The notes: generated from the sequence alone by a model not told the origin. DNA of 63,224 nt from an uncultured Pseudomonadales bacterium (GCA_964645645.1 CAZYBC010000006.1:1-63224), one strand, 5' to 3'. Shown: positions 1,213-57,655, numbered from the stretch's first letter. Translations and numbers: made by a program.

Positions 1213-1281
1213 TTGCGGAACTAGGAGTCGAACCTAGCCTGTGAGATTATGAGCCTCACGTGCACCGTACACTATCCCGCG
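1213..1281 (-). tRNA. tRNA-Met(CAU), probable initiator (fMet) tRNA with atypical features; CCA not encoded
   Basis: Folds CGCGGGA/TTCCGCA acceptor with C1:A72 mismatch, anticodon loop CT-CAT-AA, T-loop TTCGACT, A73. Confidence 0.88.
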
Positions 1282-1523: not shown

Positions 1524-1597
1524 GGCAGGGTAGCTCAGTTGGTTAGAGCATCGGATTCATAAACCGAAGGTCCTGAGTTCAACTCTCAGCCCTGCTA
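1524..1597 (+). tRNA. tRNA-Met(CAU), probably elongator; CCA not encoded
   Basis: GGCAGGG/CCCTGCT acceptor (G1.U72, G2-C71, C3-G70), D arm GCTC/GAGC, loop TT-CAT-AA, T-loop TTCAACT; A4-U69 argues against tRNA-Ile2. Confidence 0.9.
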
Positions 1598-6287: not shown

Positions 6288-7937
<1,650 letters not shown>

Positions 7938-9523: not shown

Positions 9524-9620
9524 ATTTTTATTATTGCACAAATTTTTCTAAAAAATAGACTTATTAAAACTTCATTCGTGCTTATTATTTCCATTTCCAC
9601 CTCTGGTATAATACAGTGTG

Positions 9621-11942: not shown

Positions 11943-14015
11943 GTGTTACAATACGAACAAATGCCAAAACTGGCGCCACTTCCTATCATCGGTTTTCCTT
12001 TAGCAACTGGCTGGTCACAAGTTTGTGAAACTAATAACCACCAGGTCTGTTTTGCTTTAGCTATTGCTGGTAATAATGCCACCAATATTGGCAGAGATAT
12101 TAGCCAAAAAATCAAACAAATTACTATTAAAAATGCCCAAGAATTGCATCAATTCTGTTTAGACTTATTAGCCCATATTCATCAGTTGGGCAACCAAATC
12201 CAATTCGCTGGAACTCTATTAGAAGATGGTAAATATACTTTTATCACTTACCAAGGGCTTATTCTTTTAAAAAGAAATCTTAAGGTGGGTGTTATTTTAA
12301 CTTCTGATAAAGAACTAAAATTGATTCAAGGTAGAGCTCAAGAAGATGATAGCCTGGTTTTAGCCACAGCTGATGCTCATTATTTTGTTAAAGAAGCTCA
12401 ATTAAAACTTGAACAAGGTTATCAAGCAGCCATGATTGCTACTAGCTTAGTTACCGGCATTACGAGTTACGAAGATTCGGCAACAATGGCGCTAGCGATA
12501 GTACAGCAACAGAACAGAACCGACCTTGCTAAAATTAGCCAAGAAAAAAACAAAGAATTAACGATTAACCTTGATTTAGATTTTGCTGATCAGCCACCCT
12601 CAACTCAATCCAGTGCAACATCAGAACAAATTGTGACAAAAAGACAGTCTGAAGAAACTTTAATTAATATTGTAGAATCCACAACTGCACTTGATTCTAA
12701 ACAACCAACCACCACAGCTAAAAGTAATAAAACCAGACAAATGGGTTTATTATTAAAAAACCTTAGCCAAAAAATCATTACCACTGTTGGACAAACAGCT
12801 CAAAATTTATTTAGCCTTTTACCTAAAATAAAGAAAGGTTTTTCTTTAAAAAATCAATATATTCAAACTCTACCTAATGATAAAAAACGAAAAATGATTT
12901 TAGTTATTGTTGCTGCGCTTGGTTTAATTTTAGGATCTATTTTTGGATTTAGATGGTTTAAAAATCAACAAATTAAACAAGCTCAAACTAAAATCCAACC
13001 CATGCTCAACCTATTTGCACAAGCTCAACAACTGGTAGACTCAGATCCTTTTCAAGCTAGAACCTTAACTCAAGAATCAATTGATAAACTGCAACAATTA
13101 AGGCCATACTTTGAACACAAACCCTATGCCAAAAAAATTATTGAGGAAAATTTAACCCAACAACGCACTTTTTATGACACCATTTCTGGCAAAGAAGAAT
13201 CACAAAATTTAAATGTATTTTTGGATTTACAACAGCTAGAAAATAATCTGTTAGCTTCTTTAGTAGCAGCTAACGACAATTATTTAATTATCATCGACCA
13301 AGAACAAAAAATTTTATTGCTCGTTGATTTAACTAGCAAACAAAAATATCAATTTTACTTAAGCAAAGAAATTCCAGAATTAAGCGAAGCAAAAATTAAA
13401 GACATTGTGTTAACTTCAGACAGTTTATATCTCTTGGCCAATGGTTTATATCGCTTGCAGTTTGAAATTAATGACCAAGCTCAACTTAAAATTGAGCAGC
13501 TTAAAAAAGAAGGCGATTCTGATAGAGGTGGAACTTTTATTAATAATTATTTAAGCTATTTTTATATTTTTAATCCAGAAAAAAGAAATATTTACCGCTT
13601 TAATTATGACGATGGAGTTTTATCCGAACCAATTGGTTGGTTGATTTCTAAAGAAGGTTTAGACTTCAATCAAATTAATGATATGACTGTTGATGGCGAT
13701 TTGTGGCTTAGCACTAAAGCTGGCCAAATAAAAAAATTCACTAAAGGTTATGAAGATACTGACTTTAAATTAACTGGCTTACCAGAAGAATTAACTAACC
13801 CTTTATACATTTATACCAATGAAAATTTAAACTATGTTTATTTATTTGATCCTCAACAAAGTAAATTAATCAGCATTACTAAAGATGGCAAATTTTATAA
13901 AGAGCTAAAAAGCCGTTCTTTAGCCGGAGTCACACGTTTTGCCATCAGCCCCAAAAATAAACAAATTTTTGCCATTAGTGGCTCAGTGATTTTTGAAATT
14001 CCTCTTGATAACTAA
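11943..14015 (+). CDS. Bitopic membrane protein: degenerate PP2C-like N-domain, low-complexity linker, TM, C-terminal beta-propeller-like region
   Basis: 690 aa; DDSLVLATAD motif, single TM (MILVIVAALGLILGSIFG), beta-rich repeats at the C-terminus. Confidence 0.5.
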   Translation: MLQYEQMPKLAPLPIIGFPLATGWSQVCETNNHQVCFALAIAGNNATNIGRDISQKIKQITIKNAQELHQFCLDLLAHIHQLGNQIQFAGTLLEDGKYTFITYQGLILLKRNLKVGVILTSDKELKLIQGRAQEDDSLVLATADAHYFVKEAQLKLEQGYQAAMIATSLVTGITSYEDSATMALAIVQQQNRTDLAKISQEKNKELTINLDLDFADQPPSTQSSATSEQIVTKRQSEETLINIVESTTALDSKQPTTTAKSNKTRQMGLLLKNLSQKIITTVGQTAQNLFSLLPKIKKGFSLKNQYIQTLPNDKKRKMILVIVAALGLILGSIFGFRWFKNQQIKQAQTKIQPMLNLFAQAQQLVDSDPFQARTLTQESIDKLQQLRPYFEHKPYAKKIIEENLTQQRTFYDTISGKEESQNLNVFLDLQQLENNLLASLVAANDNYLIIIDQEQKILLLVDLTSKQKYQFYLSKEIPELSEAKIKDIVLTSDSLYLLANGLYRLQFEINDQAQLKIEQLKKEGDSDRGGTFINNYLSYFYIFNPEKRNIYRFNYDDGVLSEPIGWLISKEGLDFNQINDMTVDGDLWLSTKAGQIKKFTKGYEDTDFKLTGLPEELTNPLYIYTNENLNYVYLFDPQQSKLISITKDGKFYKELKSRSLAGVTRFAISPKNKQIFAISGSVIFEIPLDN

Positions 14016-14064
14016 AGACCACTTAGCTGACTAAAACGCTGATCTAATGTTATACTAACCAGAG

Positions 14065-14511
14065 ATGATTTTATTGATTAACAAAAAAGCCAGATTTGAT
14101 TACGAAATTACTAAAACCCTACAAGCAGGGATTGCTTTAATTGGAGCAGAAGTTAAATCTTTACGTAATAAATCTGGAAGTTTAAATGGGAGCTTTGTTA
14201 AAATTATTGGTCATGAAGCTTTCCTAATTAATGCACAAATCACTCCTTATAAATTTGCGGATAATCGCCAATATGATCCTAAAAGAACACGCAAATTATT
14301 ACTGAAAAAAAAGGAAATTTACCAATTATTAGAAGCAACCCAACAAAAAAATTGGACCGTGGTCCCATTAAAAATGGAATTATTTGGCAATAAAATCAAA
14401 TTAACTTTAGGTTTAGGTCGTGGTAAAAAACAATTTGAAAAAAGAGCTAAAATTAAAGAGCGTGATGAAAAACGAAAAATTGCCACAATGATCAAAAATC
14501 AAAGAATTTAA
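14065..14511 (+). CDS. smpB: SsrA-binding protein SmpB
   Basis: NKKARFDYEI, AGIALIGAEVKSLR, DPKRTRKLLLKK and GRGKKQFEKR motifs. Confidence 0.97.
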   Translation: MILLINKKARFDYEITKTLQAGIALIGAEVKSLRNKSGSLNGSFVKIIGHEAFLINAQITPYKFADNRQYDPKRTRKLLLKKKEIYQLLEATQQKNWTVVPLKMELFGNKIKLTLGLGRGKKQFEKRAKIKERDEKRKIATMIKNQRI

Positions 14512-14543
14512 GCGCATTGACTGACAATCAAATTCAATAAATT

Positions 14544-16037
14544 ATGCTTAAAAAATTAGCTAATAATTTTGTTTTTTTTCTTCCCTTGCTTATTTTGAGT
14601 TTAATTTATATGTTGAGCTTAATCAGGCCTGTAGATTTAGCTGGTCAAGACTTAGGCAGGCACTTAATCAATGGCCAAGAAATTTTAGCTGGCCATTGGT
14701 CAGTGCTAAAAACTAATTTTTATTCTTATACTCAGCCAGAAGCCAACTTTATTAATCATCATTGGTTAGCTGGAGTAATTTTTTATTTGCTCTACCACTT
14801 CATCAATATCCAAGCCGTAATTATTTTTCATAACCTAATTTTGCTGGGTATGCTACTTAGTTTTTTTAATCTTTTAAAAAAGAAAAGTAATCTATTACTA
14901 GCTTCAGTTTTAACTTTACCAGCAATTTTATTTTTCTTAAACAGATTAGAAGTGCGTCCTGAAACTTTTGGTTATCTATTTATTAGTTTAATTTTAAATA
15001 TTATTTGGCAAGCCCAACATGACCAACAATTAAAAACTCAGCATTTTTGGAGCTTAATTATTATTCAATTTTTATGGGTAAATTTGCATATTAGCTTTGT
15101 ATTTCATTTTTTAATTAGTGCTTTGTGGCTGATTGATTTATGGATCCAGCATCAATCTATAAAAAACAAATTGTTTAAAAAAGTTTTGCTTTTAAATTTA
15201 GCTCTCCTAGGAATTAGTTTGCTTAACCCAAATTTTTTAGCTGGATTATTAGAACCATTAAAAATTTTTACTGATTATGGTTATCCAATTGTAGAAAATA
15301 AAAGTCTATTTTTTCTAAAAAAAGTTCTTAATGATAAATTAGTTTATTCTTATTTACTAACTATTTTAGTAGAAACCATAATTTTCTTTTTTACTCTCAA
15401 AAAACAAAAACCAAATTTTTTTAGCCTGAGTTTGGCTATTATCGGCGGCCTTTTAGCTTTAATCGCTAAAAGGAATATTATTATCTTTGTGTTGTTTAAT
15501 TTCCCTTTGTTGGCCGAAAACTTAAATTGTCTTGTTTCTAAAATTAAAATCAATATTAATCAATTAAAAACCATTTTTGTTAGCTTAAGTCTAATTTACT
15601 TTTTATTTATTCCCCTTATTTTAAGCGGCCAGTTAATTAAAAATATTAATAGCAAAATTTTTTATTTGGGCTTTATCGATAATCAATTTCAAGCTACTGA
15701 TTTTTTTAAAACTCTAAATATTAAAGGTCATATTTTTAACAACTATGATGTAGGCAGTTTATTAATTTTCACTTTGTACCCAGAACAACAAGTTTTTGTG
15801 GATAATCGTCCGGAGGCATATGGAGAAAATTTTTTTCAACAACTTTATATCCCCATGCAAGAAAATGACGCAATTTGGCAGGAGGCTTTGAAAAAATATA
15901 ACTTTCAAGCCATTGTTTTTGGCGCCCGTGACCTAACCAATTGGGGGCAAACTTTTATCGCCGCTCGTCTACAAGATCCAGCCTGGGAATTAGTTTATCA
16001 TGATCCATATTTGCTCATTTTTGTACCAAAGAAATAA
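14544..16037 (+). CDS. Polytopic membrane protein, GT-C-like glycosyltransferase
   Basis: 497 aa; QDLGRHL, NHHWL, RPETF, WVNLH and VFVDNRPEAY motifs. Confidence 0.6.
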   Translation: MLKKLANNFVFFLPLLILSLIYMLSLIRPVDLAGQDLGRHLINGQEILAGHWSVLKTNFYSYTQPEANFINHHWLAGVIFYLLYHFINIQAVIIFHNLILLGMLLSFFNLLKKKSNLLLASVLTLPAILFFLNRLEVRPETFGYLFISLILNIIWQAQHDQQLKTQHFWSLIIIQFLWVNLHISFVFHFLISALWLIDLWIQHQSIKNKLFKKVLLLNLALLGISLLNPNFLAGLLEPLKIFTDYGYPIVENKSLFFLKKVLNDKLVYSYLLTILVETIIFFFTLKKQKPNFFSLSLAIIGGLLALIAKRNIIIFVLFNFPLLAENLNCLVSKIKININQLKTIFVSLSLIYFLFIPLILSGQLIKNINSKIFYLGFIDNQFQATDFFKTLNIKGHIFNNYDVGSLLIFTLYPEQQVFVDNRPEAYGENFFQQLYIPMQENDAIWQEALKKYNFQAIVFGARDLTNWGQTFIAARLQDPAWELVYHDPYLLIFVPKK

Positions 16038-27219: not shown

Positions 27220-29925
27220 ATGGCAAAAAACAAACACTTCTCACCTCACCAGAAGAAAAAAATTATTAATCATGCTTTAAATGGTCAATTAACTGAAAAA
27301 AAAACTAGCAAACAAAAAATTAGCCAGCTGCTTAAACAGGCTGAAAAGCTCAATTCTCAAAAATCTCAAATAACTTCATTGCCAGCTCCTTTTCAAGAGT
27401 CTGCTAAACCTAAAAAGTTAAACTGGCAATTAATCAAAACTGTTTTTCAAAAATCAGCTAACTTAACTATTTATTTATGGAATTTCTTTTGGGGCAAAAG
27501 AGCAAGCTCTACAGCTAGCCTTACTCAAACTTCATCAACTCAAGCAAATCCAATCGCTGATTCACCTGTTATTAACACTCCATCACCTTCTGACTATAAC
27601 GTCTTAGCCATCATTAAAAGATTAAAATTACTAGCAAATAAAATCCGAAGCTTATTTGGCCAAAAACTCAACAAAACACCAAGAATTAAAAAAATACTGC
27701 GAATCATTTTATTTCCAATTTTAAACCCATTTTGTAGATATGGAGTAATTATTTTATTTTTTGGATTTTTTATTTGGTTAGGCGTATTGGCCAGTGAGTT
27801 ACCTTCACCAAAAAGAATTGCTACTACTGATAACTTTGCGGTGAGTACTCAAATTTTTGATCGTAATGGTGAACTACTTTATGAAATTTTTGCCAAAGAA
27901 AATCGCACGCCCATTGCCCTCAAAGATTTACCTCCTTATGTTTATCAAGCCACCATTGCTATCGAAGATAAAAACTTTTATAAACACTTTGGCATTGATA
28001 TCCAAGGCATTGTCAGAGCAATTATTAATAATCTTAAAAAAGAAACTGTTTCTGGTGGCTCCACAATCACTCAACAATTAGTCAAAAATGCGCTTTTATC
28101 TAGAGAAAAAACTTTCCAACGTAAAATTAAAGAGGCATTGCTTTCTGTTCTCACCGAAATGATGTACACCAAAGAAGAAATCTTAGAAATGTACCTTAAT
28201 TACATTTCTTATGGCGGAACTTCTCTAGGAATTGAAGCTGCTGCCAATAGCTACTTTGATAAACATGCTAAAGATTTAACTTTAGGTGAAGCGGCTTTAC
28301 TAGCTGGTTTACCCCAAGCTCCAAGCAAATATTCGCCCTTTGGCTCTAACCCTCAACAAGCTAAAAACCGACAATTCGATGTTTTAAGGCGAATGAGAGA
28401 AGATGGATATATCAGTCCAGAAGAAGAAAAACGAGCACAAGAAGAAATTTTGGAGTATGCGCTTAGCCAAACCGAAATCAAGGCTCCTCACTTCGTCTTT
28501 TATGTGCGTGATTTACTTTATGAAAAATATGGTGAAGAAAAAGTCCAGAAAGGTGGTTTACGCGTTACCACTACTCTGGACTTAAATTTACAAAACGTCG
28601 CGCAAGCTTCTTTATCAGCTAAAATGAAAACAGTTGGCCCTCGCTATAAAGCCGGTAATGCTGCCGCTTTAGTCACCAAACCTAACACCGGTGAAATTTT
28701 AGCCATGATAGGAAGTAAAGATTACTTTGATGCTACCGCTGATGGACAAGTCAATGTTACTATTTCTAATCGCCAACCTGGTTCTTCAATCAAGCCAATC
28801 ATGTATGCCACTACTTTCCAACAAAAAACACTCAGCCCAGGAACCATTTTATTAGATAAGCCTACTTGCTTTGGCATTACTGGTCAAAAAAATTATTGCC
28901 CTAAAAACTATGATGGCTCTTTTAATGGACCATTAACTGTTAGGCAATCTTTGGCAAACTCTTTAAACATCCCGGCAGTTAAAGCTTTATCTACTATTGG
29001 AGTAGCAACTTTTATCAACCAAGCAAATAAAATGGGCATTGAAAGTTGGCAAGATCCTACCCAATACGGCTTATCTTTAACTCTTGGTGGCGGTGAAGTA
29101 AAAATGACTGAAATGGCTCAAGCTTTTGGGGTAATTGCTAATCAGGGAGTTAAAGTTCCCCTTACTCCTATCTTAGAGGTTAAAGATTATCAGGGAAATG
29201 TTTTAGAAAGTGTTAATACTCAACAACGTTTGTTAGATTTAACTTATTTAACTGAATACGAAAGCAGCAATAAAAATGACCTAGAAAGAGTCATGGATCG
29301 CGCGCCAGCTTATCTAGTTGCTCATATTATGCAAGATGACCAAGCCAGATCCAGAGTTTTTGGCATGAAAACCAAATTAACTATTCCTGGCCAAATCGTT
29401 AGCGCCAAAACAGGTACAACAAATAATTCTAAAGATAACTGGACTGTTGGTTTTACTCCAGAATTTTTAACTGTTATATGGGTTGGAAATAATAATAGTA
29501 ATCCAATGGCTTATTCAGCCGATGGCATTACCACTGCTGCCCCAATTTGGAACGACATTATGAGCTATATTCTCAAAGATAAAGAAGCAATTTTATTAGA
29601 CAAGCCAGATGATGTTAAAGCTGGCATGGTCTGCGTTAGCGGCATGCCACCCAGCAAAGAAAGTGGTGAAGGCTGTGGCTCAATGACCAACGATCTTTAT
29701 TGGGAAAAAAGCCAACCAGCAAATAGCAAACAAATCACTAAAGACATGTGGATTGACCCAACCACTGGCCAACCACCCAAATATGGCGAACAAAAAGAAG
29801 GTTTAATCTTAGAAAACCACACTTTATACACTGATCCTACTGGCGATTCTCTATGTACTAATTGTATTCTGCCCACCAACGAAGAAGGTAAGATCATTTA
29901 TGATCCTTACCTAGTTAAACCTTAA
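27220..29925 (+). CDS. Class A penicillin-binding protein with a long N-terminal extension
   Basis: EDKNFYKHFG, GGSTITQQLVKN; GSSIKP, SLN and KTGT; TM at about aa 175-190. Confidence 0.95.
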   Translation: MAKNKHFSPHQKKKIINHALNGQLTEKKTSKQKISQLLKQAEKLNSQKSQITSLPAPFQESAKPKKLNWQLIKTVFQKSANLTIYLWNFFWGKRASSTASLTQTSSTQANPIADSPVINTPSPSDYNVLAIIKRLKLLANKIRSLFGQKLNKTPRIKKILRIILFPILNPFCRYGVIILFFGFFIWLGVLASELPSPKRIATTDNFAVSTQIFDRNGELLYEIFAKENRTPIALKDLPPYVYQATIAIEDKNFYKHFGIDIQGIVRAIINNLKKETVSGGSTITQQLVKNALLSREKTFQRKIKEALLSVLTEMMYTKEEILEMYLNYISYGGTSLGIEAAANSYFDKHAKDLTLGEAALLAGLPQAPSKYSPFGSNPQQAKNRQFDVLRRMREDGYISPEEEKRAQEEILEYALSQTEIKAPHFVFYVRDLLYEKYGEEKVQKGGLRVTTTLDLNLQNVAQASLSAKMKTVGPRYKAGNAAALVTKPNTGEILAMIGSKDYFDATADGQVNVTISNRQPGSSIKPIMYATTFQQKTLSPGTILLDKPTCFGITGQKNYCPKNYDGSFNGPLTVRQSLANSLNIPAVKALSTIGVATFINQANKMGIESWQDPTQYGLSLTLGGGEVKMTEMAQAFGVIANQGVKVPLTPILEVKDYQGNVLESVNTQQRLLDLTYLTEYESSNKNDLERVMDRAPAYLVAHIMQDDQARSRVFGMKTKLTIPGQIVSAKTGTTNNSKDNWTVGFTPEFLTVIWVGNNNSNPMAYSADGITTAAPIWNDIMSYILKDKEAILLDKPDDVKAGMVCVSGMPPSKESGEGCGSMTNDLYWEKSQPANSKQITKDMWIDPTTGQPPKYGEQKEGLILENHTLYTDPTGDSLCTNCILPTNEEGKIIYDPYLVKP

Positions 29926-29929
29926 ATTT

Positions 29930-52200: not shown

Positions 52201-54093
52201 AGGTTCTTGACAAGTTTTATGGCCTTGAACATCAGGAATACATTGATTAGACTGACATTCATAATTAGCATTGCAAACTACTCCATTAGCTTTATCACGA
52301 TAGTTAGCTACTTTACCAGTCTGACAAGGACCACAATCTTTAACATTTAAATTACATAAGCCAGTCTTGGTATCTTGCTTGGTAAAATAACAAATTTTCT
52401 CAGCTATAACGTTACCATTATTGTCAAAATTACAAGCCTGAACAAAAGCCTCTCTACAACTGACATCTTTAATAGGTTCACAACGAAAAAGAAAATTAGA
52501 AAGTCTCCCTTCAAGGCCAGGACAGCAAGAAGAACCGGCCAATATACCAATCTGTTCACCTTGACCTTTACAAACTGTTTCACCAATCTGATAAGGAGGG
52601 ATAGGAGTAGGTGTGGGTAATAAACAAGCTTGATTGCCACAACCATAGGCACAATTACTAGGATTACCCCAAGTTTGATTATTACTACAAGTATATTCAA
52701 CACCATTCTGACATTTGTGTTCACCTAAGTTACATTCAATTCCACCAGTTTTTTCACCACCTTGATGAGTATCATCAACCTTTGGCTCTTGGCAGGTTCT
52801 TGGTAAACCTTTACATTCCAATCCTGGTAAACACTTTTTATTGGCAAAAATACCACAATACTCACCTTGCTTTAAGGAAACTTCCACTACTTTAGCAGGA
52901 ATAGGGGTAGCAGTAGGTGCAAGCTTTTCTTCTGTTTTACTTTTGGTCTTAGGTTGATCAGTTTTTTCTTCAGTAGTAGTGCTGGTTGCATCAATTGGTG
53001 TAAACGACACGCATTTTTTACTACCAGTACAAGCAGAAGCCTCACCAGTACCGACACAAGTACTGTAATAACATTTAGCTTTACCTAAGGTTAAACCAGC
53101 CCGAGTGGTTTCTTCAAAGTATTCAGATTTACAAGCTTGACCATTAAAACGACAGCTATCACTTCCTGTTCCAATTCCGATAGTACTCTTATCAGTACAC
53201 TGATTGTTGTAACATTGATAACCAGTAGGACATTTTTGTTCGGTCCAAGTTTTACAATCACTCTTACAAGTCTTGAGAGTATCATAATTACATTGCACTT
53301 CACCTGGGTTACAGTTACACTGTTCAGTTTTCACACAACAAACCTGCATCGTATCACAACCACCACACTGACTACTTTGAGCAGCTTCTAAGCCCGCAGG
53401 ACAGCCACCAGTATAGGCACTATAACAACCAGCTTTACTAGTTGTACCACCTGACCCAGGTTTAATAGTCACTTTAGGGGTAGGAATAGGCGTACTAGCT
53501 GGTACTTTAGTTGGTCTAGGAGTTACTCCCACATTACCACAAGGAGCTGGACAATTACTTCCAGACTGATTTCTTTGAGTTTCCCCATCCCAACACCTGA
53601 CACATTCAGACATAGATAAGCATGCATATTCACCATGCTTAGCATAACTACAATTAATATTCGGCCCACAATAAGGATCACCAGAACATTTGCTTCTATC
53701 TACCTCTAACCACTGCCCACCTTGGCACTCTACACATTGTTTAGTCCCACCACAGGCTGTAGTCCCAGGATCAACATAAGCATTAGTACTAGACAAAAAA
53801 CATTTTTTTACACCTGGTGTGGGAGTGAGTGTTGGTTTAGCACTTGGCTGGGCACTTGGAGAAGGTGTGGTATACAAATCTGTACTAGCTTGTTGACGAA
53901 TATCTTGATTAACCTTAACCAAATAAAAAGCCGCTGCCCCGCCTACCAATAACAAAATTAAAGGTAACAATAAAATAAATTTAGTTCTAAATCTTACTAA
54001 AGGTCTTAAAGTAGAGGATTGGCGATGTGGAGTAAAAAACTTACTAAGTTTAAAAAGTAAATTTTTTTCACCCTCTTTCCTTGTTTGTAACAT
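34237..54093 (-). CDS. Giant (6,618 aa) membrane-anchored multidomain protein: Cys-rich region, SecA-like ATPase, HD, J-domain, PPP phosphatase, FHA, ART-like, transglutaminase-like, TPR
   Basis: Single uninterrupted 19,857-nt frame; motifs detailed in the findings. Confidence 0.95.
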   Translation of the reverse strand: MLQTRKEGEKNLLFKLSKFFTPHRQSSTLRPLVRFRTKFILLLPLILLLVGGAAAFYLVKVNQDIRQQASTDLYTTPSPSAQPSAKPTLTPTPGVKKCFLSSTNAYVDPGTTACGGTKQCVECQGGQWLEVDRSKCSGDPYCGPNINCSYAKHGEYACLSMSECVRCWDGETQRNQSGSNCPAPCGNVGVTPRPTKVPASTPIPTPKVTIKPGSGGTTSKAGCYSAYTGGCPAGLEAAQSSQCGGCDTMQVCCVKTEQCNCNPGEVQCNYDTLKTCKSDCKTWTEQKCPTGYQCYNNQCTDKSTIGIGTGSDSCRFNGQACKSEYFEETTRAGLTLGKAKCYYSTCVGTGEASACTGSKKCVSFTPIDATSTTTEEKTDQPKTKSKTEEKLAPTATPIPAKVVEVSLKQGEYCGIFANKKCLPGLECKGLPRTCQEPKVDDTHQGGEKTGGIECNLGEHKCQNGVEYTCSNNQTWGNPSNCAYGCGNQACLLPTPTPIPPYQIGETVCKGQGEQIGILAGSSCCPGLEGRLSNFLFRCEPIKDVSCREAFVQACNFDNNGNVIAEKICYFTKQDTKTGLCNLNVKDCGPCQTGKVANYRDKANGVVCNANYECQSNQCIPDVQGHKTCQEPGEIKKECSSGETKCEWWNSSYWQYNCQQGTFVRSSKCDGGCSGSQCAANVCTYPSSQCSADGTKLLICKQTQIGYLEYNCEGGCEAGICQEKEKCGLFNPCKENFKCAKGQCIPEGAVGNACKGPAFIMPCTYPTSQGTVEVGEQFCWYSQLDKNGQCTQNQVCENVCSPTGSIVQENRTPAYPTATPTKVPPTPIPTASSLADLLAEKTPAPSQPIIKPSSNQAIQDLTDNKELTLSQLEQKTNLSQEEVTNLMNAKFSRSYQALVDNDLDYLRNQCKAELGDSNTACTLSSEKILKALYPKIETAYIFDQVEEDKAFTQNLNQKFGIYLAGGYTDLQVECVSLTGKPELCSNEQQVLQIVVPGVSEDQVKNIITYKQEETKKYRQIAAKVEEAQTETINTYLSTDMQVLYNQCRADNPNDYQKCSTQEGILAYLAPSLEKPAIAQVANQKRLVEQENRNLEQLYQDYLGGRNVQDLVEQKCQLVTKTNGQIADCQGDSAGKVVFGLDDAQLALRKENITSRILNRDSEWASEALIATKDLQGVDKFSYNLMTTMASSNWFGNSVENYVNVQTDFANQYTGGDKFLATLELSGAVMEKVAIASAVVAVPALGITAAAGGASALGVGATLLGTTQVSLASSNFFGAGSQTAAVCRTSEDALNDPACLQQGANFALAGANFVLAPVTGSLTAAKQGVQLTGLMGSGAQGIIGTAQTATSLVASNAQQLGYGLGLANTTLATVNAAQSQQLTDWASVGGSVLNTVAGTAGLFNPNNAALNLGTDLLADVSGSMLDYYALQNTANLNPNDQFAQTRAFLGLAVGLGQAGFEVQSDVSNFRNSQPVRSLGGADVPKLDPLVKTQQTLLDVAKLDNAVKLDTTLSDPYYAKAKYYEDLVKANQTDIEAIVGKLSKEPNLPESEKLALATVRDNLIKQNTDLTVQKDNAYKIYETRQQEQDIRLAKAILPETVIADAQIKLEAAQTQKQIIEQQKIELESKIAKVEESVKIAEQIGDVTQAEQIKTQRGELEAQLAQADAELAKVNQEFEQQKQAIEAAVAKAQAEGIKPETAKTAEGAAQPETVKTETEQVAQVETTKPAAQPGIFQRIQETVGGWFGRGGQTVSTQEVKTETAKVEEAQKTAQPQEQPIKTQAEVAQELQAGFNQAKQSIQEIAQTEGDVRKLTEKINSFDNAIRALDSKLNINPDNQSLINQRANLEQQKLQLQQNLDSVKAKAASLNQDDNLSKPVLAGLTTIRPETTAQSTKNQAEQLRNQVATELGKKSASEVDLTKIEADLISQNGGQRTLAVEQQLNQALRKLKQATLLDTVADLQQKFASLDQTSVEALRVISDIDQLLQTRELDIPQVSSDPQKNLQIENIIRSAELRAGQSEGIAFFNTRSNQLSTLAQILSSPKVAVELTTAGGKSFVGGLVLEIQKTVYGRDKGIYIAKAGGEADIANQLRAMSPEGTKVVEFDQNKFLQDKAYQAEVLAADYLVSNPDQIQFLRNTAHNYSLGSTRDVAVSLYKNLSSNVGVYVDELQINMDPSRQAINPTGESSKPIAQNQKDAANLVGESILDTGLINRWGSGDHAGVLTVREADGAEVARFTDDTLDKIFTQLKVKNGESSAFKGMSETEISDLVDYVRSNAQELEILSSNTNALTSRLEAAGFKDSSAQANQVLDQIDQINSFAQGLKMKFGVDYFRDVDSQLQANNANNRTKDPVTIPASGGVKNEGQSYTASLQAAMEFIGAKAYAQANPGVNNAASKVNFDGLTSSPETAYRSTFADYLADLNNSSVGAVTGAFADGRGVVETTLGFDTYRDTEAVEKIVNTADTDIGARINKDRSYMASGLEDSTQLIVDLIRSGKLAQSNGLASNDSVKYVIGSDDVGDTMRIAQADAQGRDFSDRQRYFVQQGGDHYVEVAFVRTVDSAGNETISRRILNDNLDAKGVQKLYQDNPANMTIVIGRGGATGDSIRTEGNVPGVTLVSKNSPEGLVAQAGARLDRGTAVAEQYAIILDSTRSNLDLNVDATTRLASANEFDFQEFRQSINEAQLRVEQLKTTQGLDNGIESASTRVLAELSMSADAKIASWASAKLLEMSSNESRRNVDLVGGSQDTLVARQAKLASAQSKWQDLFSDSANQSILKYIETNNPQAFARMRSNVEVDANRLAYADQNAPISKEAVVNSGDLSEYLLQHNATVKKTDDVAKVAAGNNAGRTVATGVVAPSMQPTLLAGTRRIITAVADNFSTRQSNLPKGGLVNTALFIPRTMANGLAAFLDTTWPTVIKPAFIATYLNKPTQPVTPKTETEKVAQTTEQKASTTKPTLGERLSGWWATGLIGSATNLTQWWSGGLVNAPAVQKVLSTGLISLFKKSESQPATPVQPGQQAQPVQPQAAAKAETNIQNSFIYKVGNWFGGIAKDLGFGQKTTTPEQAQPEVEQPGTGGATQEEVKPAETVIFGGVEFPVIEIKERTTEQKTTALTKYLADRGLGQYSANVRALSNEQIANLYTQVFENKEIYTHEQAIEVLLNFLGVKTEAPAQAEQPDTGGTTQEEVVKTESPVTLAHGSSDEELAKLRQQGKTEYAQTLNLAKGKGLINTIKSVLGWNTFAGKKAALRDLVDGKGDLGAAYTRLVDNGVVKPAVMMDEVNYFFGIKENLTVTTVADIEAELRNYQGGEQKAKLTEAEISDVMLAANEVLADYVLANGENSRIAGVEFARDMARLLSYQILRDKQVFSGSDHGNNHIVRGNLNKGLALLESVSKLEQAGLVVTAKDRLAFVVATLLHDMGYTTGVAQAQASFEASKDHPIFSAAFIKANQSYFERHLGKASFEAVYEAILLHSYPNYDADFRVESDGVHPEMVHHVLAIVDALGTTAETKAPEAFKIPAVLEKLNGIRLYKQLLIEKYEQQFAGLEAEEKQDQINAAVKAKLKPYVEKKKQEIIDLLMADENLAVDRRNQYIEAVKNQFNEVTVDLTLPTYTGLLDEVTFMVNEQGKIVPKVNMRVSSVQALLSDLFGEDFSVAAFKKAMEDLGMTSEQIKNLGGIIKDYRSANDDQKAQLRDRLTMQSERALFTFDVDSLMKEDGFSELFAGLMRHDLRMEIVDLINKSNELSPNDLAAELLDRLIALESYVDDPQLKKQINLVIDSLEDENLNETDVLQLKNTLNNLLVSDLQDYLGVEDTDLISGIQTTDWVFAVREIVESEIATPDLTSSIPGIGGILTDTTKIFTKVRGFLDLYQTLQQQSQAPKAIEQVQPVQEVQPAEIEPVTEQIKPEVEQPVSGEVSVQAEQIGTGGTTQEEVVATTEQPMFAQEETTPTEEAQTVEAEAPAEEVTTTTTEENYPILPYEEVVAPLVPYGGYPSLPSYAQELAAAREQQEYLAQMAVYDQPSTVLVTTTVVSDLAGTEELEQGDTRTVNQTPALPNLTNTEVVKEYLPVLYDSRAVEFNWLVDAVDQVVARITGQKRVDQFLETFAYSPVMQSLQAKPALEADLTNYPIVRYQEAPLARMAETISTFTENEVPAATTAVIEDRGPIRFGQAIPLMGSVDTVQNLFEQYQAWLARRATLANLADQYNITAYFATHPVKAKEGQGSEVENQETETVAVESGTEAITADQTNYPIVLTAEQANYPLARIEGREYLEAELAQADKQAIVARDTVLKSVYNSIPVGSGPINSVLALLPQYQAFVKAQTANQQHLGKMFKAWADQLAKLKTESTEEVAAETALTEPVVEEPSPELTLEEQLEQVKAQIAELDQQIAEINAEYDPRYKAYNDGLNSIEKQLYEQKISASFRYNATNLAGKLKELIGYINWDAENDLSQIGSHLAILETDLATIFNEFNYIAGQNEENEALNNVYKKVLELIEAYNWTNESATLTELIDTLNNEFIPKIEPYLEDNQEVLATLSKTLEQRNSALANATTTYQQAHQAEKEQIEALRAKYRDLDTQKTALLKQANYLTEAIVKRDNDLVAPNPPTAAVADSYAPVEEVIQVKDEAQAAREQLLGLLKVIPGLNAIEQFVANIDQVNFLTGLVNVWTASELSLSQKVTETFKVLPESVTPGIANQRFTEILTQAESLEDLHTRLEKNFSYGNNYWMLVNPATNQIEFVNLFKFIDNVDDTLSSLNNKEFDEDVSATLADWPNYAPIRAAGQQLVAIALAQRKQANATKAEAFYADYRQQQEQLINRLEIKPETKVAELKTLAQNPPNQKSWLTDNNQIVGADTVVSWLDRIDFENVNQVIPADKIPLSALREKVQALLDLRKSEQARKAAEKYQQAQTAYSKFLLRLNLSSETTAAQLEVLASNQDLTIDDYLKMFGLTRDSEQTDFTAAKRALLNPVHPDNYEMLGTAYLFDKKTNLEMQALLANLAAATKLLNRALIDLEEYFKNPEAYLRKHNSTASSQPSTDFYTQIKKAEDAIKSTLYKARNLDELIELMSKYEETRDMVDDVREFVEGKIKADRLLESYGIRDLAKKLLAEEAEERASYIDKLNKLPIFANLMPLISHSSTTLDQLREIWNTINGFRFGNFDAQTLEGTDVRFNFSLLMTQIERILNLSGSLYRRPINEINNAQNVQGLLDFLTRYENEDIFLDDETFYTSEELKAEKQSLIDLRAAWNTDDYNQVDVILNNLRIAAIKNKVLSIIRDRYQRNINDLYLKAVNAKTLAELRNIFNQSPILYYPSDALTPRATILTSSYLVSSLDNGLVQNLPTELQNIVNKLLTQAKVQQAAQQVAPSSGQSVSNQTRTVNSVMVGDVHSNKNRLVKLLQESGWIEFIGQTEKPGFFARIFNFFIKLFTGKDPAKSSLNFEDEWQLNVLGNANSISFTGDYFDRNRNDREKTPGIDIIKLLWKLKQQASKMVGVEFNMLGGNHEVEFLLAMLLDENEDFRLLQALAHNGVDMDEVVEAKKDPQVWEILQNLDWMALRVDGSVMQHSDVFSYADFIYPDLISGIGWEKLADVEETKQHLDMILQRVQNDQLTPQQVVERINSNMKNYVQTAVRNNDLNSIFRLFDILTLDKKDSQFLNNPETTDLYLELFATAANKGQNRIYHGHNQKLGKSQPIYHDGRVINIDRGMGEHYGGKGDIVKETIYAGEQPASQQPSGYSQSAAQSPQAQAAQPTFTPTTITIGRGDGGLRNYQINDERVSSRHAKISNNSQGQWFLVDTSTNGTFLYNVQNPSGQRVYGSVEIKNGDVIKIINQYFKIKIDGNKVSLEDVTLNFSGTGSYNTKGCSSCPIAFGEFNTEFTSFFIAQSLANTISVEADKADLQALNQTAQAQVAVLKNMANDHTFDNAPAQETLDALAETADAMLKKTEAEKAQAIAEMAEAFQTIDQAISQITAAQDSAQNQAITDLTTLKNELKLISAELEALQVKPSNRLAGVFERINIQLEEIALYVKRISGDVSRLVRPEEEEETGETSITEEVSSTKIKIGDQEIEALVLGKTDPSQITAENLDQLFKLYHGASKKLIVDENYDFFADEDAPDGSYTIGAGLYTTDNHALAEEYANLRAKQNLQTETGVLTTLVPYQAKMLDLRNGQSLPEPLFKAWVEFMQAKFAQKKAQYEAISKPDGIEEMMFEFEKRYYDFLVAIAAKEPDQENRQIHYVLATRFIPEYNMEVGLGSSQNFYFAEFMKNLGFDGLISQEPTDIEGMIKADSFVFFNYSTIGSVEDWQRRSETESKIEENKETGVLEQFQPTFAEQLTELVNVLGVEDLDFDSSKPAKEILAELMPKIGNEEIFSIEAENPEKELMRLVTYHALQTAYQRLNPSGVEEINQARERIKDLEKDESPLVKREREDLIFQLLRQNVLTFPSGDYSYVKHPHYSFLQPSESNEYDCIAQTAYAISVLYNLGKDRNQIRTALSGFHLSALYNDASINQINVYDPRTADRYSLTKATNDNVPNNDFFSKYSIESIKTALDFVNETDHLGFLEPSYQEARQNIHFMTPEDGFLAAFYTHLGRTHQEEENFDKAEEYYQIALMFDPENSYIAAMRSLYR

Positions 54094-54099
54094 GTAAGT

Positions 54100-55734
54100 T
54101 TATTCTTCTAACTTGACTGCTAACCACCAACTCCAAATACCGCCGGTAATAAAGAACAAACCAGCCAGAATTAGAGCTAGTGTCACTTCAAAGCTTCCAG
54201 CTGAAAAAGTTCCACTAGAAGTAGAAACAACTGCAGACCGACTACTCATAGCTACGGTGGGACTTAATTTTACAGTTGGAGTAACTTTTTGAGTAGGGGT
54301 AGGAGAAGAGTAAGGATTACCAGAACCATAAGTTGTACTAGCTAAGGCTAATTGATTACTGGTGGTAGAAGTTTTTTCACCCACATAGAAGGTTTTAGTT
54401 GTGGTAACTAATTTACCAGTGGTTGGATCAGTATAACTATAAGTAACTGTGTGTTCACCTGGTTCTAGATTTTTACCCAAAGTGGCGAGATCAAGTTCAA
54501 AATCACCATTTTTATCGGCGGTAACAGTCGTTTCAATCTGATTATCAGAATGGATCTCAATTGTAACCACTACGTTTGGTTTAGCTTCACCTTTAATTAA
54601 AGGCTGAGCAACGTGCTCTAATTGAGTAGTATCTTTAACAGTTAAATCTACTTCTGTTGCTAAAGTAGCTGAAGTAGAAGCTGAAGTAGAAGTAGGAGCC
54701 TTAGTAGGAGCAACCGTTACAGAACTAGCTGGGACACTCGTAGGAATTGGCATACTATAATCACTAACCACTTCGCTAGGTGAATCATCATACACGTCAC
54801 TATCTGAATAATCAGTCACATTGTTACTTGGCTCTTCCTCAAGAGCTGAAGACATACTTAAATTTGCTAAATTCTTGCCAAAAGCAGAATTACTAGCTTC
54901 ACCAGTAGTCTGACCCGTTGTTAGAGTTGGGATAGCACTAGGGCTAACAGCGGGAACAGTGCTAGCTGAGGCAGCGCCAAATTTTAAATCAGCAACTGGC
55001 TGAGCACTAGCAATAGTAGTTTGATAACTTAAAGTCTGACTAAAACTTTTGCCTTGAGCTAAAAAATTAACAGCTGTATCTTTGTTAAAAATAGCTGAAG
55101 CTGTACCCTTGGCATTTCTAGCGGTAGCCAAAGAAATTCCCCAGCCACCGGTATTCCGCACTAAAGAAGAAAGTGGACCTGCTTCACTCATGGTTAAATA
55201 AACGACGCTGCCTTCTGCTGGCGTACCATCTTGATTATATAAATTACCATAAATCATCGTAGAATCAGGAGCTGAACTTAAAGAAGCCGCTGTTGTTACT
55301 GTGAAAGGTTTACCTTGATTATCAAAAGTAGTTCTTTCTGAGCTAGTTCCTAAAACATAAAAATAAGCAGTGTTAGGTTTTAAACTTCTTACAGTAATAT
55401 GATGAACATTGTAATTACCAGCCACACCAGAAAGCTGAGTTCTGTCATCACTAGCTTGAAGGCTAAGTTTATTTTCAGCGCTACCATATTTAACAAAACT
55501 AGTAGTAGGTTCATCTGTAAAAAATGACACGGTAAAACTAGTATCAGTTACATTAGTTAAGCGGACATTTTTAGGAGTGGTCTGAGGAGTGGCTCTAGGA
55601 GCAAAAACTCCAGTCCCATTTTTAAATAACAATAAGCCTGACACTAAAGCCCCAACTAAAACGAAAATGCCAATCATGGTAGGCATCTGTTTCTGCATCA
55701 AATTTTTTCTTTTGTTAACAACTGGTTGTGGCAT
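54100..55734 (-). CDS. Surface protein with FN3/purple-acid-phosphatase-N-like domain, Ser/Thr/Pro linkers, Ig-like domain and C-terminal membrane anchor
   Basis: N-terminal TM; PKNVRLTNVTDTSFTVSF...HHITVRSLKPNTAYFY; IKGEAKPNVVVTIEIHS; TFSAGS plus terminal TM (ORF track start 55806). Confidence 0.75.
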   Translation of the reverse strand: MPQPVVNKRKNLMQKQMPTMIGIFVLVGALVSGLLLFKNGTGVFAPRATPQTTPKNVRLTNVTDTSFTVSFFTDEPTTSFVKYGSAENKLSLQASDDRTQLSGVAGNYNVHHITVRSLKPNTAYFYVLGTSSERTTFDNQGKPFTVTTAASLSSAPDSTMIYGNLYNQDGTPAEGSVVYLTMSEAGPLSSLVRNTGGWGISLATARNAKGTASAIFNKDTAVNFLAQGKSFSQTLSYQTTIASAQPVADLKFGAASASTVPAVSPSAIPTLTTGQTTGEASNSAFGKNLANLSMSSALEEEPSNNVTDYSDSDVYDDSPSEVVSDYSMPIPTSVPASSVTVAPTKAPTSTSASTSATLATEVDLTVKDTTQLEHVAQPLIKGEAKPNVVVTIEIHSDNQIETTVTADKNGDFELDLATLGKNLEPGEHTVTYSYTDPTTGKLVTTTKTFYVGEKTSTTSNQLALASTTYGSGNPYSSPTPTQKVTPTVKLSPTVAMSSRSAVVSTSSGTFSAGSFEVTLALILAGLFFITGGIWSWWLAVKLEE

Positions 55735-55867
55735 ATAAAATCTAGAAGTAAAGAACTTCCTGTTATCATTAAAGACAAAAATTGAACTTAATTCAAGGCG
55801 AAACAAAACCGAAATTTACTCAAGCAAAAATAATTGACTGAGTTAGCACTAGTTAATACAACTAACC

Positions 55868-56290
55868 TTATTGAAAATTCATAACATTAGCAGCTGGAGA
55901 AGCCACAGCCGGAGTAACTGTTTTAGCCGCATTACTTACAGCTGGACTTGGGGTAACAACTAATTGATCTGCCCCAACTTTTACAATTTTCATTAAATTT
56001 TTATTGTTTTCATCTTCTTGAACCATATAAATATCAAATTTAGCTAAATCACTAGCAGAATAAATTTGCTTTTTCTCTAAAGTATCCAAAACAGTAGTAT
56101 CAACACTAGGAGTCAAAGGACTAGCTAAATTTTTTAACTCAGTAGAAATTTTTAAAGTATTCTGAGCAGTAAAAAGATTCATCATTACCCAAAGTAAAAT
56201 TACAACCAATAAAAAAACTAGAAAAGTAAATAAAAACTTCCGTTGTTTTAAATCTGCTATTTGACTAACTGGCTTATTACTTGATGACAT
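55868..56290 (-). CDS. Bitopic protein in the PilP-like position of the pil operon
   Basis: 140 aa with one N-terminal TM; 3 nt after the pilO stop; PLTPSVDTTVL motif. Confidence 0.5.
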   Translation of the reverse strand: MSSSNKPVSQIADLKQRKFLFTFLVFLLVVILLWVMMNLFTAQNTLKISTELKNLASPLTPSVDTTVLDTLEKKQIYSASDLAKFDIYMVQEDENNKNLMKIVKVGADQLVVTPSPAVSNAAKTVTPAVASPAANVMNFQ

Positions 56291-56293
56291 AGG

Positions 56294-56971
56294 TTAATTC
56301 TGTGTTTTTAATTCAACTTTTTGAGTCTCATCTACTTTAGTATTATTACCTAAATCATAATATGGAACCTGCAAACTAAGAGTCGCCTTTAAACTCTTTT
56401 GCCCTCGATTATCATTAACATGAAAAGTAATGCTATCTACAATAATTAATCTTCTATTAGAACGTAATTTTTCTGCCACATTACGAATAGCCTGATAATT
56501 ACCAATTAAACTCAATTTTAAAATCAGGTTATTTTGTTTAGCTTTGCTTAAATTACTAGTAGTAAGATTAGTTAAATCAGTTTCAACTGGGATTTCATTA
56601 ACTGAAGCAGTTTCTATTACTACTACTTCTTCACTGCAAACTTTTTCAATTGTTTTTAATAACTCTAATAGATTAGCCGAACTAGGAATTGCTTGGTCTA
56701 AAAGATAAAGCCTGTTTTCCAAATTAGAATACACTTGCTGAGCTGAAGCTAAAGCAGAAATCTTTTGGTCAAACTTTTTAGACAATTCTTTTTTATCTTC
56801 AATTTCTTTAATCAAATCAGCCATAGTTAGTAAAGTAGGACGGATAGCCGCCAAAGCAAAAAATACAATTGAAAAAACAGTCAGAAATAATTCCAGAGAA
56901 ACCTTAGCAACTGGATTGTTATAAAAAGTTTGTAAAGCTAGATTCAATTGTGTTTTTTCTTTAGTAGACAT
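56294..56971 (-). CDS. pilO: PilO-like type IV pilus alignment protein
   Basis: TM, coiled coil, LDQAIPSSANL...GNYQAIRNVAEKLRSNRRLIIVDSI ferredoxin-like pattern. Confidence 0.75.
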   Translation of the reverse strand: MSTKEKTQLNLALQTFYNNPVAKVSLELFLTVFSIVFFALAAIRPTLLTMADLIKEIEDKKELSKKFDQKISALASAQQVYSNLENRLYLLDQAIPSSANLLELLKTIEKVCSEEVVVIETASVNEIPVETDLTNLTTSNLSKAKQNNLILKLSLIGNYQAIRNVAEKLRSNRRLIIVDSITFHVNDNRGQKSLKATLSLQVPYYDLGNNTKVDETQKVELKTQN

Positions 56972-56976
56972 ATTTT

Positions 56977-57600
56977 TTAATTAAGATCTGGTTCTGTTTC
57001 AGTAGTCACTGATTTTTTAGTTTCCGTGTCTTGTTTTTTAACCTCAATTGTTTTTTTAGTATTAGCTTTTAAGCTAAAGGCAAAACCTGGACGATTGTCA
57101 TCCAGAGATTCTATCTTATCAATTCTTACTTCAAAAAAATCCTCTGACAAAGTTAAATTATTAACAAAAGTATTCAGCATACTTTGAGAAAAAACTTCAC
57201 CTTCAACACTAACCGAATTTTGATTAATAGTTAAATTCTCAAAAACCACATTACTAGGAGTAATCTTACTTAGTTTAGGAAAAATATCAGCAATATTATC
57301 ATTAACAGCCAAAACCTTATAATCAGTCAGCTTCTTTTGCAGATTTAAAAAATTGGTTTCTAATTCACCATAAGATAAAATTAAAGATTTTTTCTGTTCA
57401 ATTTCTTTATTAATATCTGTCCGCTGACGATCTAAAGTAAACCTAGCCACAAAACTTAAAATTACTAATAGTTCAGTAAAAATCACAATATATCTACCCA
57501 CTGATAAAGCCCACTGGATAGAACGACCAATTACTCCTTTAAAAAAAGGATCCTTAGGAAAAAGATTAATCTTAATCTCGACAGGCTTCTTATTAGGCAT
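56977..57600 (-). CDS. pilN: PilN-like type IV pilus alignment protein
   Basis: INLFP N-terminus, TM, coiled coil, ITPSNVVFENL...VEGEVFSQSMLNTFVNNL; own TGT-TACAAT promoter 7 nt before the ATG. Confidence 0.75.
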   Translation of the reverse strand: MPNKKPVEIKINLFPKDPFFKGVIGRSIQWALSVGRYIVIFTELLVILSFVARFTLDRQRTDINKEIEQKKSLILSYGELETNFLNLQKKLTDYKVLAVNDNIADIFPKLSKITPSNVVFENLTINQNSVSVEGEVFSQSMLNTFVNNLTLSEDFFEVRIDKIESLDDNRPGFAFSLKANTKKTIEVKKQDTETKKSVTTETEPDLN

Positions 57601-57655
57601 TGCTTTTATTGTAACAAGTTTATAAAGAAAACACCATTAACTTAAACCACTCAAA

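Follow-up and report, generated by a model that had tools for sequence, protein, structure and literature searches.

A conserved murJ-adjacent pilN-pilO module in Microgenomates-type bacteria, with a giant gene as its probable optional neighbor

The stretch of DNA analyzed here comprises 63,224 nucleotides (nt) deposited under an uncultured Pseudomonadales bacterium (GCA_964645645.1 CAZYBC010000006.1:1-63224), and its full length is referred to as the window. Behind the gene of the lipid II flippase MurJ, it carries a run of genes for PilN, PilO, a small bitopic protein designated X140, an envelope protein with FN3 and Ig domains, and a giant open reading frame (ORF), with intergenic gaps from murJ to the giant of 55, 5, 3, 133, and 6 nt (Table 1). 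An initial annotation had described the genes from pilN to the giant as one run behind the promoter box TGTTACAAT, with no pilM, ATPase, or pilin gene adjacent. The re-derived coordinates agree with that run and its gaps, the box is present before pilN, and none of the missing genes was found among the window ORFs scanned with Pfam. Comparison with related loci showed that pilN-pilO-X140-FN3 is a vertically inherited core block beside murJ in the Microgenomates lineage (Pacebacteria/Woesebacteria-type). The giant is an optional occupant of a variable slot behind this block and probably does not belong to any pilus-like system as an integral component.

The first two genes of the block encode bona fide PilN and PilO by Pfam, profile, and fold, as the initial annotation had named them. 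PilN passes the PF05137 cutoff of Pfam (41.1 bits against 22.8, E=1.9e-10), and its 283 homologs in the database, of about 190 to 230 amino acids (aa), all carry PF05137, are of the Patescibacteria type and, where names are given, belong to Woesebacteria, Pacebacteria, or Patescibacteria. The protein has a short cytoplasmic N terminus (~25 residues), a single transmembrane segment (TM), a long helix, and a ferredoxin-like domain. In its AlphaFold2 (AF2) model (predicted local distance difference test [pLDDT] 79), a helix over residues 23 to 113 is followed by a strand-strand-helix-strand-strand arrangement over 119 to 180. The top Foldseek matches of this model were the periplasmic domains of PulL (5hl8, TMt 0.78), EpsL (2w7v), and XcpY, followed by PilN of T. 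thermophilus (4bhq) and then by PilO and EpsM. Single PilN and PilO sequences gave no match in the Protein Data Bank (PDB), and the PilN profile reached at best E=0.65 there (PilN of 3jc8); consequently, the identity of PilN rests on fold and Pfam. PilO passes PF04350 (25.0 bits against a cutoff of 22, E=2.3e-5), with weak T2SSM_b and GspM matches besides, and a profile of 36 orthologs matches PilO of M. xanthus (3jc8_Oa) with E=2.5e-7 over residues 13 to 192, nearly the full length.

The N terminus of PilN, KINLFPKDPFF, is highly conserved: among 32 homologs, N12, D17, P18, F19, and F20 are invariant, and I11, L13, and P15 are conserved in at least 90%. We take this INLLP-type N-terminal segment to be the PilM-binding motif of canonical PilN. 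The first residues of PilN have been shown to sit in a groove of PilM (PMC6325625).

The third gene, X140, had been labeled pilP-like. Its product consists of a TM, a conserved core of ~50 aa (...LAKPL.P....E.K..F...EL..FPIY), and a variable S/T/P-rich tail, and an orthologous ORF of this kind is present in 66 of 68 species. It belongs to no Pfam or NCBIfam family, shows no PilP match at E<=1, and its profile found nothing in the PDB at E<=10. The TM is of the uncleaved type, with no lipobox cysteine and no cysteine after the TM. The homolog search returned two matches only, for which reason the AF2 model is of low confidence (pLDDT 58); it contains two short helices and a hairpin and no beta-sandwich. 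With neither lipobox, family match, PDB profile match, nor beta-sandwich in this low-confidence model, PilP was rejected as an identity for X140, and the earlier label, without backing from Pfam, NCBIfam, profile, or model, fits the position of the gene only.

The fourth gene encodes a protein with a Pfam match to Pur_ac_phosph_N (2.6e-12) and matches below cutoff to Big_13 (3.7e-4) and fn3 (1.8e-3). From its N terminus it reads QKQ-MPT, a TM, GVFAPRATP, an FN3-like domain, a second beta-rich domain, a linker, a Big_13 Ig domain, SAGSFEVT, and a TM. Both termini are strikingly conserved among orthologs (N-terminal QK[RQ]-IPT-TM-GxGVFAPRATP; C-terminal SGSVGTT-TM-short tail), and because of these terminal TM motifs the protein is probably anchored in the membrane at both ends. 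The C termini of the orthologs (54100-54200 on the minus strand in the window) have the form (P)xSGS(V)GTT, a TM of the type LALIFGGLFFIxSGxWSFW, and a short polar tail, and they resemble a tripartite sorting signal. Among the surveyed loci, the proteins L008a (13520-15331) and L041 (15100-16761) end in LPQTG- and LPVAG-type sortase-like signals, respectively.

The conservation of the block was surveyed with one genome per GTDB species, giving 80 loci with a fetched span of +/-10 kb around the block, and counts were restricted to loci with enough sequence. PilO follows PilN in 75 of 75 species, and the FN3 gene is present after X140 in 68 of 68. The canonical pilMNO order, with pilM directly upstream of pilN, was not found, as murJ occupies that position in 76 of 77 species, on the same strand in 75. 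Behind the FN3 gene, the loci diverge. The first gene there (61 loci) is a Bac_transf sugar transferase in 17, convergent 5S-23S rRNA in 13, a convergent GH18 gene in 7, a giant ORF of >1,100 aa in 8, a smaller protein that shares the N-terminal signature of the giant in 5, and another gene in 11. Giants thus do follow pilN-pilO elsewhere in Microgenomates, in 8 of the 61 species, and the remaining 53 have the block without a giant. The giants in the surveyed slots always run off the end of the locus.

Close relatives of the window (PilN identity of 69 to 72%) share the order S20-LepA / MurJ-PilN-PilO-small-FN3-giant; the ORF calls put their giants at 7610 and 5793 aa, and the adjacency of FN3 and giant is kept in loci L001 to L003. 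In relatives at ~50% identity, S20-LepA / MurJ-PilN-PilO-small-FN3 is followed directly by convergent GH18-PBP1a (L005, L006, L013). This order without a giant continues with a 163-aa protein, a kinase, Rce1, DUF5667, NrdR, and RNR (L005, P0008 contig), and the same order is found in the window from 31171 to 21726. Compared with these relatives, the window has ~23 kb extra between FN3 and GH18, made up of the giant and four small ORFs, and the latter are also missing between FN3 and GH18 in L005, L006, L013, L045, and L065. In a tree of MurJ and PilN, giants occur in two subclades of the group with GH18-PBP1a downstream, with species lacking the giant interspersed (L005, L006, L007, L013, L057, L045, L064, L065). 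In L053 (11441-14328), ORFs of 150 and 795 aa correspond to giant fragments (~aa 1-150 and 150-977) cut short before GH18; judged from these fragments, the L053 giant is a decaying copy next to an intact pilN-pilO-X140-FN3 block.

The earlier view of the giant as the last member of one run therefore holds for the physical linkage, with its 6-nt gap, its persistence in L001 to L003, and a homologous giant in a second clade, and fails for membership, since the block stands without a giant in 53 of 61 species. The alternative considered there, a conserved core block with an independently transcribed giant, applies in its first half (PilO 75/75, FN3 68/68); in the window, the giant begins 6 nt after FN3, which leaves no room for a promoter.

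Two further observations concern the slot. In L030 (13572-14456), a Mutator-family transposase gene stands straight after FN3, which fits a slot tolerant of insertions. In the 17 species with Bac_transf, this gene is usually followed by a member of Wzy_C, an O-antigen ligase family (L010 11949-14589, L023 13451-16795, and ~15 more). The Wzy_C family includes pilin O-oligosaccharyltransferases, and the Bac_transf-Wzy_C pair may be tied to glycosylation of Ser/Thr-rich envelope proteins.

Table 1. Features of the locus. Positions are those of the 63,224-nt window; all genes of the block and the giant lie on the minus strand.
Feature	Position	Strand	Remarks
murJ	57656-59347	-	Lipid II flippase; Pfam MurJ 8.2e-69, TIGR01695 1.3e-79
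P1, extended -10-like box TGTTACAAT	57608-57616	-	Start of leaderless type, 7 nt ahead of the pilN ATG
pilN, 207 aa	56977-57600	-	PF05137
pilO, 225 aa	56294-56971	-	PF04350
X140, 140-aa bitopic protein	55868-56290	-	No family
P2, promoter-like element in the X140-FN3 spacer	55768-55814	-	TTCG-N6-TTTCGCCTTGAAT -N17- TTTAAT
FN3/Ig envelope protein, 544 aa	54100-55734	-	ATG start taken
Giant ORF, 6618 aa	34237-54093	-	Slot between FN3 and GH18
Giant N-terminal signature: TM aa 40-58, NQDIRQQA aa 62-69	53887-53976	-	
Four small ORFs (CopG-like, SIMPL/DUF541, two unknown)	31172-34236		With the giant between FN3 and GH18
PBP1a and GH18	27220-31171	+	Pfam Transgly/Transpeptidase, Glyco_hydro_18; convergent

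The regulatory signals of the block also separate its parts. Median gaps across 71 loci are 2 nt between PilN and PilO, -4 nt between PilO and X140, and 116 nt (range 61-309) between X140 and FN3, and these sizes suggest translational coupling within pilN-pilO-X140. As a pattern alone, the box before pilN (P1) is not above chance, with 6 occurrences of TGNTAYAAT in the window against 8.3 expected. Of 84 related loci, however, 45 have TAnAAT no more than 50 nt from the PilN ATG, against 6.2% of random windows, and TGnTAnAAT precedes PilN in 12 of 84, against 0.29%; in ten loci, the TAnAAT box ends 6 to 7 nt before the ATG. Because of this enrichment, a promoter at P1 is credible. TGnTAYAAT boxes at 9604-9612(+), 61912-61920(+), and 57608-57616(-) end 5 to 7 nt before the starts at 9618, 61927, and 57600, and leaderless or near-leaderless mRNAs are suggested as a common feature of the organism.

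The 133-nt gap before the FN3 gene contains a conserved promoter-like element (P2) that did not figure in the initial annotation and that splits the single operon proposed there. Its consensus is TTCG-N6-TTTTTCGC[GAC]TTG[CT]A-N14-17-TCTCTA[CAG]AGT, the upstream TTCG repeat being conserved, and it resembles a -35 and a -10 box set a constant 17 nt apart. The core (T[TC]CG..TTG, ~17 nt, TA[CAG]AGT/TTTAAT) was found by regular expression in 61 of 77 loci, and variants could be recognized by eye in 15 of the remaining 16 (the 15 with spacers printed). The exact core TTTCGCNTTG occurs once in the 63-kb window. A sigma-54 promoter was rejected on inspection because the GG/GC spacing does not fit, and a generic sigma-70 and terminator scan of 53.5 to 59.6 kb gave counts at chance level. 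Given the conserved P2, there are probably two transcription units rather than one, with P1 predicted to serve pilN-pilO-X140 and P2 the FN3 gene, plus the giant in the clade of the window. The spacing between FN3 and giant is 6 nt in the window, an overlap in L001, and 24 to 57 nt in L003. The corresponding spacers of the sister clade (108-141 nt before the giant, or 81-141 nt over L042, L053-L056, L067, and L068) contain a conserved 40-nt element (...CTACCAGATGTTTTTTGTAGTAAATTAGAAT... / CCTTTCTACCAGATGTTTTTTGTAGTAAATTAGAATAGGG), retained in L053 despite the decaying giant, and this element suggests that the sister-clade giant is under independent control. Sequencing runs containing the locus were wastewater DNA metagenomes only, with none among public RNA runs.

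The giant itself differs from what a displayed protein would lead one to expect. Behind its first TM lie 78 cysteines in ~aa 60-800, and at aa 1231-1249 another strongly hydrophobic stretch follows. The ~5,300 aa past this second TM (~80% of the protein) include PPP-type metallophosphatase-like motifs (GDVHS at 5377, GDYFDRN at 5450, GNHE at 5492), an FHA domain, and a C-terminal TPR, with segments of note at aa 5377-5492 and ~5749-5820. Searches against the PDB, Pfam, and NCBIfam returned just FHA (Pfam 1.5e-12) and a weak TPR, and a search of 1.84 billion representatives with the first 1,200 aa turned up no more than 14 relatives. Most of the giant is probably cytoplasmic signaling-type sequence and not a surface adhesin. 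If the two TMs are real, only a Cys-rich loop of ~1,170 aa would lie outside the cell, a poor fit to a "displayed" giant. We found nothing in support of the idea that PilN and PilO scaffold or display it.

The N-terminal signature of the giant consists of a basic stretch, a TM of ~20 residues, 3 to 4 residues, [NS]QDxRQQA[SA], and then usually Cys-rich sequence. It is carried by the giant and by every same-strand protein directly after FN3. Their lengths run from 150 aa up to at least 2,400 aa within the loci, and the L001 contig has one called at 7,610 aa. Between lineages, the similarity of these proteins is mostly limited to ~50 N-terminal residues, so that the segment appears to behave as a modular N-terminal signal or anchor. 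The signature is not present on other exported proteins of the window and is covered by no Pfam or NCBIfam model. Its 63-column profile gave one match at E<=1 in 5.8 billion proteins, as the signature is too short for a database of that size. In a reciprocal test, metagenome contigs were scanned for the back-translated motif (120 stretches), and 15 genes in 14 loci proved to have genuine TM+motif N termini, on low-GC contigs resembling the Candidate Phyla Radiation (CPR). The block stood directly upstream in just 1 of ~10 informative genes (L204, with LepA/S20/MurJ/PilN/PilO/X140/FN3); ~9 genes with 2.4 to 6.5 kb of upstream sequence lack it, several of them in tandem arrays. Since ~9 of ~10 informative genes lie elsewhere, the signature, judged by where the motif occurs, marks a broad CPR protein class whose members are not otherwise related and do not depend on the block for their location. 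As a sorting or cleavage signal particular to the lineage, it is a candidate. Signature genes lie, for instance, in L093 (5958-8822), L099 (4269-6283), L114 (34-1945), and L155 (4863-7489), often in tandem arrays, and the C-terminal end of the signature protein in L080 (12908-14038) is like that of the FN3 orthologs.

The rest of a pilus machine was not found near the block. Nearly all window ORFs of at least 90 aa were covered by the Pfam scan, and among these no match to PilM, T2SSE, T2SSF, prepilin peptidase, or pilin was obtained. A six-frame scan of the window and 85 related loci (1.38 Mb) revealed no GspE/PilB Walker A, RQDPD box, or prepilin G-F-T-L-x-E motif; thus, the separation from the rest of the pilus machine is a trait of the whole lineage. 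The FN3 and TM-NQDxRQQA proteins were also considered as prepilins and rejected, since they lack a Gly at -1, an F/M-T-L-x-E motif, and Glu5.

Compared with the type IVa alignment subcomplex PilM-PilN-PilO-PilP(-PilQ) of Pseudomonas, Myxococcus, and Thermus, the block shares the adjacent pilN-pilO genes, the bitopic topology, the INLxP-type motif, the coiled coil with a ferredoxin-like fold (Foldseek matches 4bhq, 3jc8, 5uvr, and 2rjz), and the PilO profile match. It differs in that an upstream pilM, a PilP lipoprotein, and a secretin are all missing, in the X140 and FN3/Ig genes that follow instead, and in its place beside murJ, at least 10 kb from ATPase or pilin genes. The type II secretion system (T2SS) pair GspL/GspM is similar in that the periplasmic domains of PulL, EpsL, and XcpY are the best matches of the PilN model and PilO has its weak GspM/T2SSM_b matches; however, GspL has a fused cytoplasmic PilM-like domain where PilN here has ~25 cytoplasmic residues, and no GspD/E/F is nearby. 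Monoderm and CPR bacteria likewise have type IV pilus loci in a secretin-less envelope, and alignment proteins of the PilM/N/O type are common and enriched in CPR bacteria (PMC6744442). In Saccharibacteria TM7x, however, pilM1N1O1 and pilM2N2O2 lie inside loci with pilB and pilC (PMC12206443), whereas here pilN-pilO is split off. In Ch65, a complete Microgenomates genome, a single locus brings together PilA, minor pilins, PilD, PilB, PilT, PilC, and PilM, and PilN/O are not listed there (PMC7143001); this locus is the counterpart of the present block, on the other side of one split.

On balance, we lean moderately toward the following explanation: the block is the PilN/PilO alignment module of a type IV pilus, split off from the other pilus genes and joined by two envelope partners specific to the lineage, the PilM and motor genes lie elsewhere, and the giant is an accessory co-transcribed with FN3 in the window. 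PilN and PilO would form the membrane alignment subcomplex of the organism's pilus machine and would dock a PilM whose gene lies elsewhere, in the company of pilB, pilC, pilD, pilT, and the pilin genes. The lineage-specific partners, in a monoderm-like cell without secretin, would be X140 and the FN3/Ig protein. P1 would drive pilN-pilO-X140, and the deeply conserved P2 would drive the FN3 gene; in the clade of the window, the giant would have been drawn into the FN3 unit by its 6-nt gap and be co-expressed without depending mechanistically on PilN/PilO. This split-machine explanation is based on the enrichment of PilB/T/C/M/N/O/D, without PilQ, in CPR bacteria (PMC6744442), on the Ch65 locus having PilM without PilN/PilO, and on the retained PilM-binding-type motif.

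Several points weigh against it. PilM, PilB, PilC, and pilins were located neither in the window nor in the loci of its relatives, so that the link to a pilus is one that we infer. The neighbors of the block are cell-wall and glycan genes (murJ, PBP1a, GH18, Bac_transf, Wzy_C), not pilus genes, and both P1 and P2 are predictions from sequence. As for the giant, a collinear stretch joins those of the two clades (window aa 1614-2408 and L068 aa 1560-2285, 30% identity, E=4e-74), and because of this partial collinearity the giant may be an old, often-lost resident of the slot rather than a recent arrival. Furthermore, a signature gene is the first after FN3 in 13 of 61 species from several lineages, against ~6 at other positions in the same loci, a comparison whose denominator is a rough estimate; the excess hints that signature genes behind FN3 reflect more than neutral adjacency.

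The cell-wall neighborhood is the starting point of the first alternative, in which PilN and PilO beside murJ have taken on a new role apart from any pilus, in an envelope or cell-wall complex that works with MurJ, PBP1a, and the glycan genes. It would account for the near-invariant murJ adjacency (76/77), for PBP1a, GH18, Bac_transf, Wzy_C, and an epimerase as neighbors, and for the lack of any pilus ATPase or pilin within 10 kb in any of the 80 species. We nevertheless consider it unlikely, as PilN keeps the invariant INLxP-type motif, which binds PilM in canonical systems (N-terminal residues, PMC6325625), a promoter-like box stands between murJ and pilN, and the Ch65 locus with PilM and no listed PilN/PilO fits a split machine; moreover, a deeply conserved gene order in reduced CPR genomes does not have to reflect function.

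Very unlikely, in our judgment, is the system proposed in the initial annotation, in which block and giant form one dedicated five- or six-gene unit and a PilN/PilO platform with FN3 scaffolds or displays the giant. Its co-directional genes with gaps of 5, 3, and 6 nt, the FN3-giant adjacency in close relatives, and the partly homologous giant in the slot of a second clade are in its favor. There is also a precedent in ultra-small Omnitrophota, where giant multi-TM genes lie downstream of T2SS/type IV pilus-like loci (West-Roberts et al., bioRxiv 10.1101/2023.11.21.568195). Those loci, however, have >10 subunits including GspD/E/F, as well as class III signal-peptide proteins, and are conserved with the giants, whereas here just PilN/PilO are present, without an ATPase, and the block is kept whether or not a giant follows it. 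The intact block without a giant in 53 of 61 species, the decaying L053 giant beside an intact block, the splitting of the run by P2, and the separate spacer element of the sister-clade giants all argue against a dedicated system, and ~80% of the giant after the second TM, with phosphatase motifs, FHA, and TPR, makes a displayed surface protein unlikely.

The signature proteins allow another explanation, in which the block acts in trans as a handling, anchoring, or sorting apparatus for the TM-NQDxRQQA class and the gene after FN3 is a local substrate, comparable with sortase or exosortase systems. Non-homologous passengers with the same N-terminal 50 aa, the first place after FN3 in 13 of 61 species from several lineages, the absence of the motif from other secreted proteins of the window, and the FN3-type SGS..TT-TM end of the L080 protein are consistent with it. 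Against this stand the ~9 of ~10 informative motif genes, often in tandem arrays, without the block in the 2.4 to 6.5 kb upstream, and vertical descent in two clades could account for some of the adjacency. To our knowledge, PilN and PilO have no sorting or protease activity, and we regard such a role as quite improbable. Equally doubtful is a stand-alone PilN-PilO-X140-FN3 platform, uncoupled from pilus genes, that recognizes the juxtamembrane TM-NQDxRQQA signal and positions or anchors large Cys-rich membrane proteins, including the giant, at the surface or host-contact site; if true, the signature would be a new type of N-terminal sorting signal, and its receptor would derive from PilN/PilO.

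PilN/PilO in CPR bacteria and a giant behind type IV filament genes in Omnitrophota are already known. The invariant murJ-adjacent pilN-pilO-X140-FN3 module apart from other pilus genes, its conserved private promoter, and the TM-NQDxRQQA class appear to be new. The split-module explanation tells a universally conserved four-gene envelope module of Microgenomates apart from the giant that happens to stand behind it here, a gene to be studied on its own terms. PilN-PilO-X140-FN3 is also a candidate means by which secretin-less, ultra-small bacteria span the envelope with a pilus machine, and TM-NQDxRQQA marks a class of unannotated CPR membrane or surface proteins.

Two minor observations concern the records and the far end of the window. 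The record titles of relatives with Microgenomates-type loci name Pseudomonadales, Limisphaerales, Methylococcaceae, Vitreimonas, Lentimicrobiaceae, or TM6 and are likely mislabels (L008, L011, L013, L022, L030, L048, L059, L065, and others). At 302-931(-), the window carries a gene for an AbiEii-family toxin (Pfam 7.4e-11), with two tRNA genes nearby, at 1213-1281(-) and 1524-1597(+).

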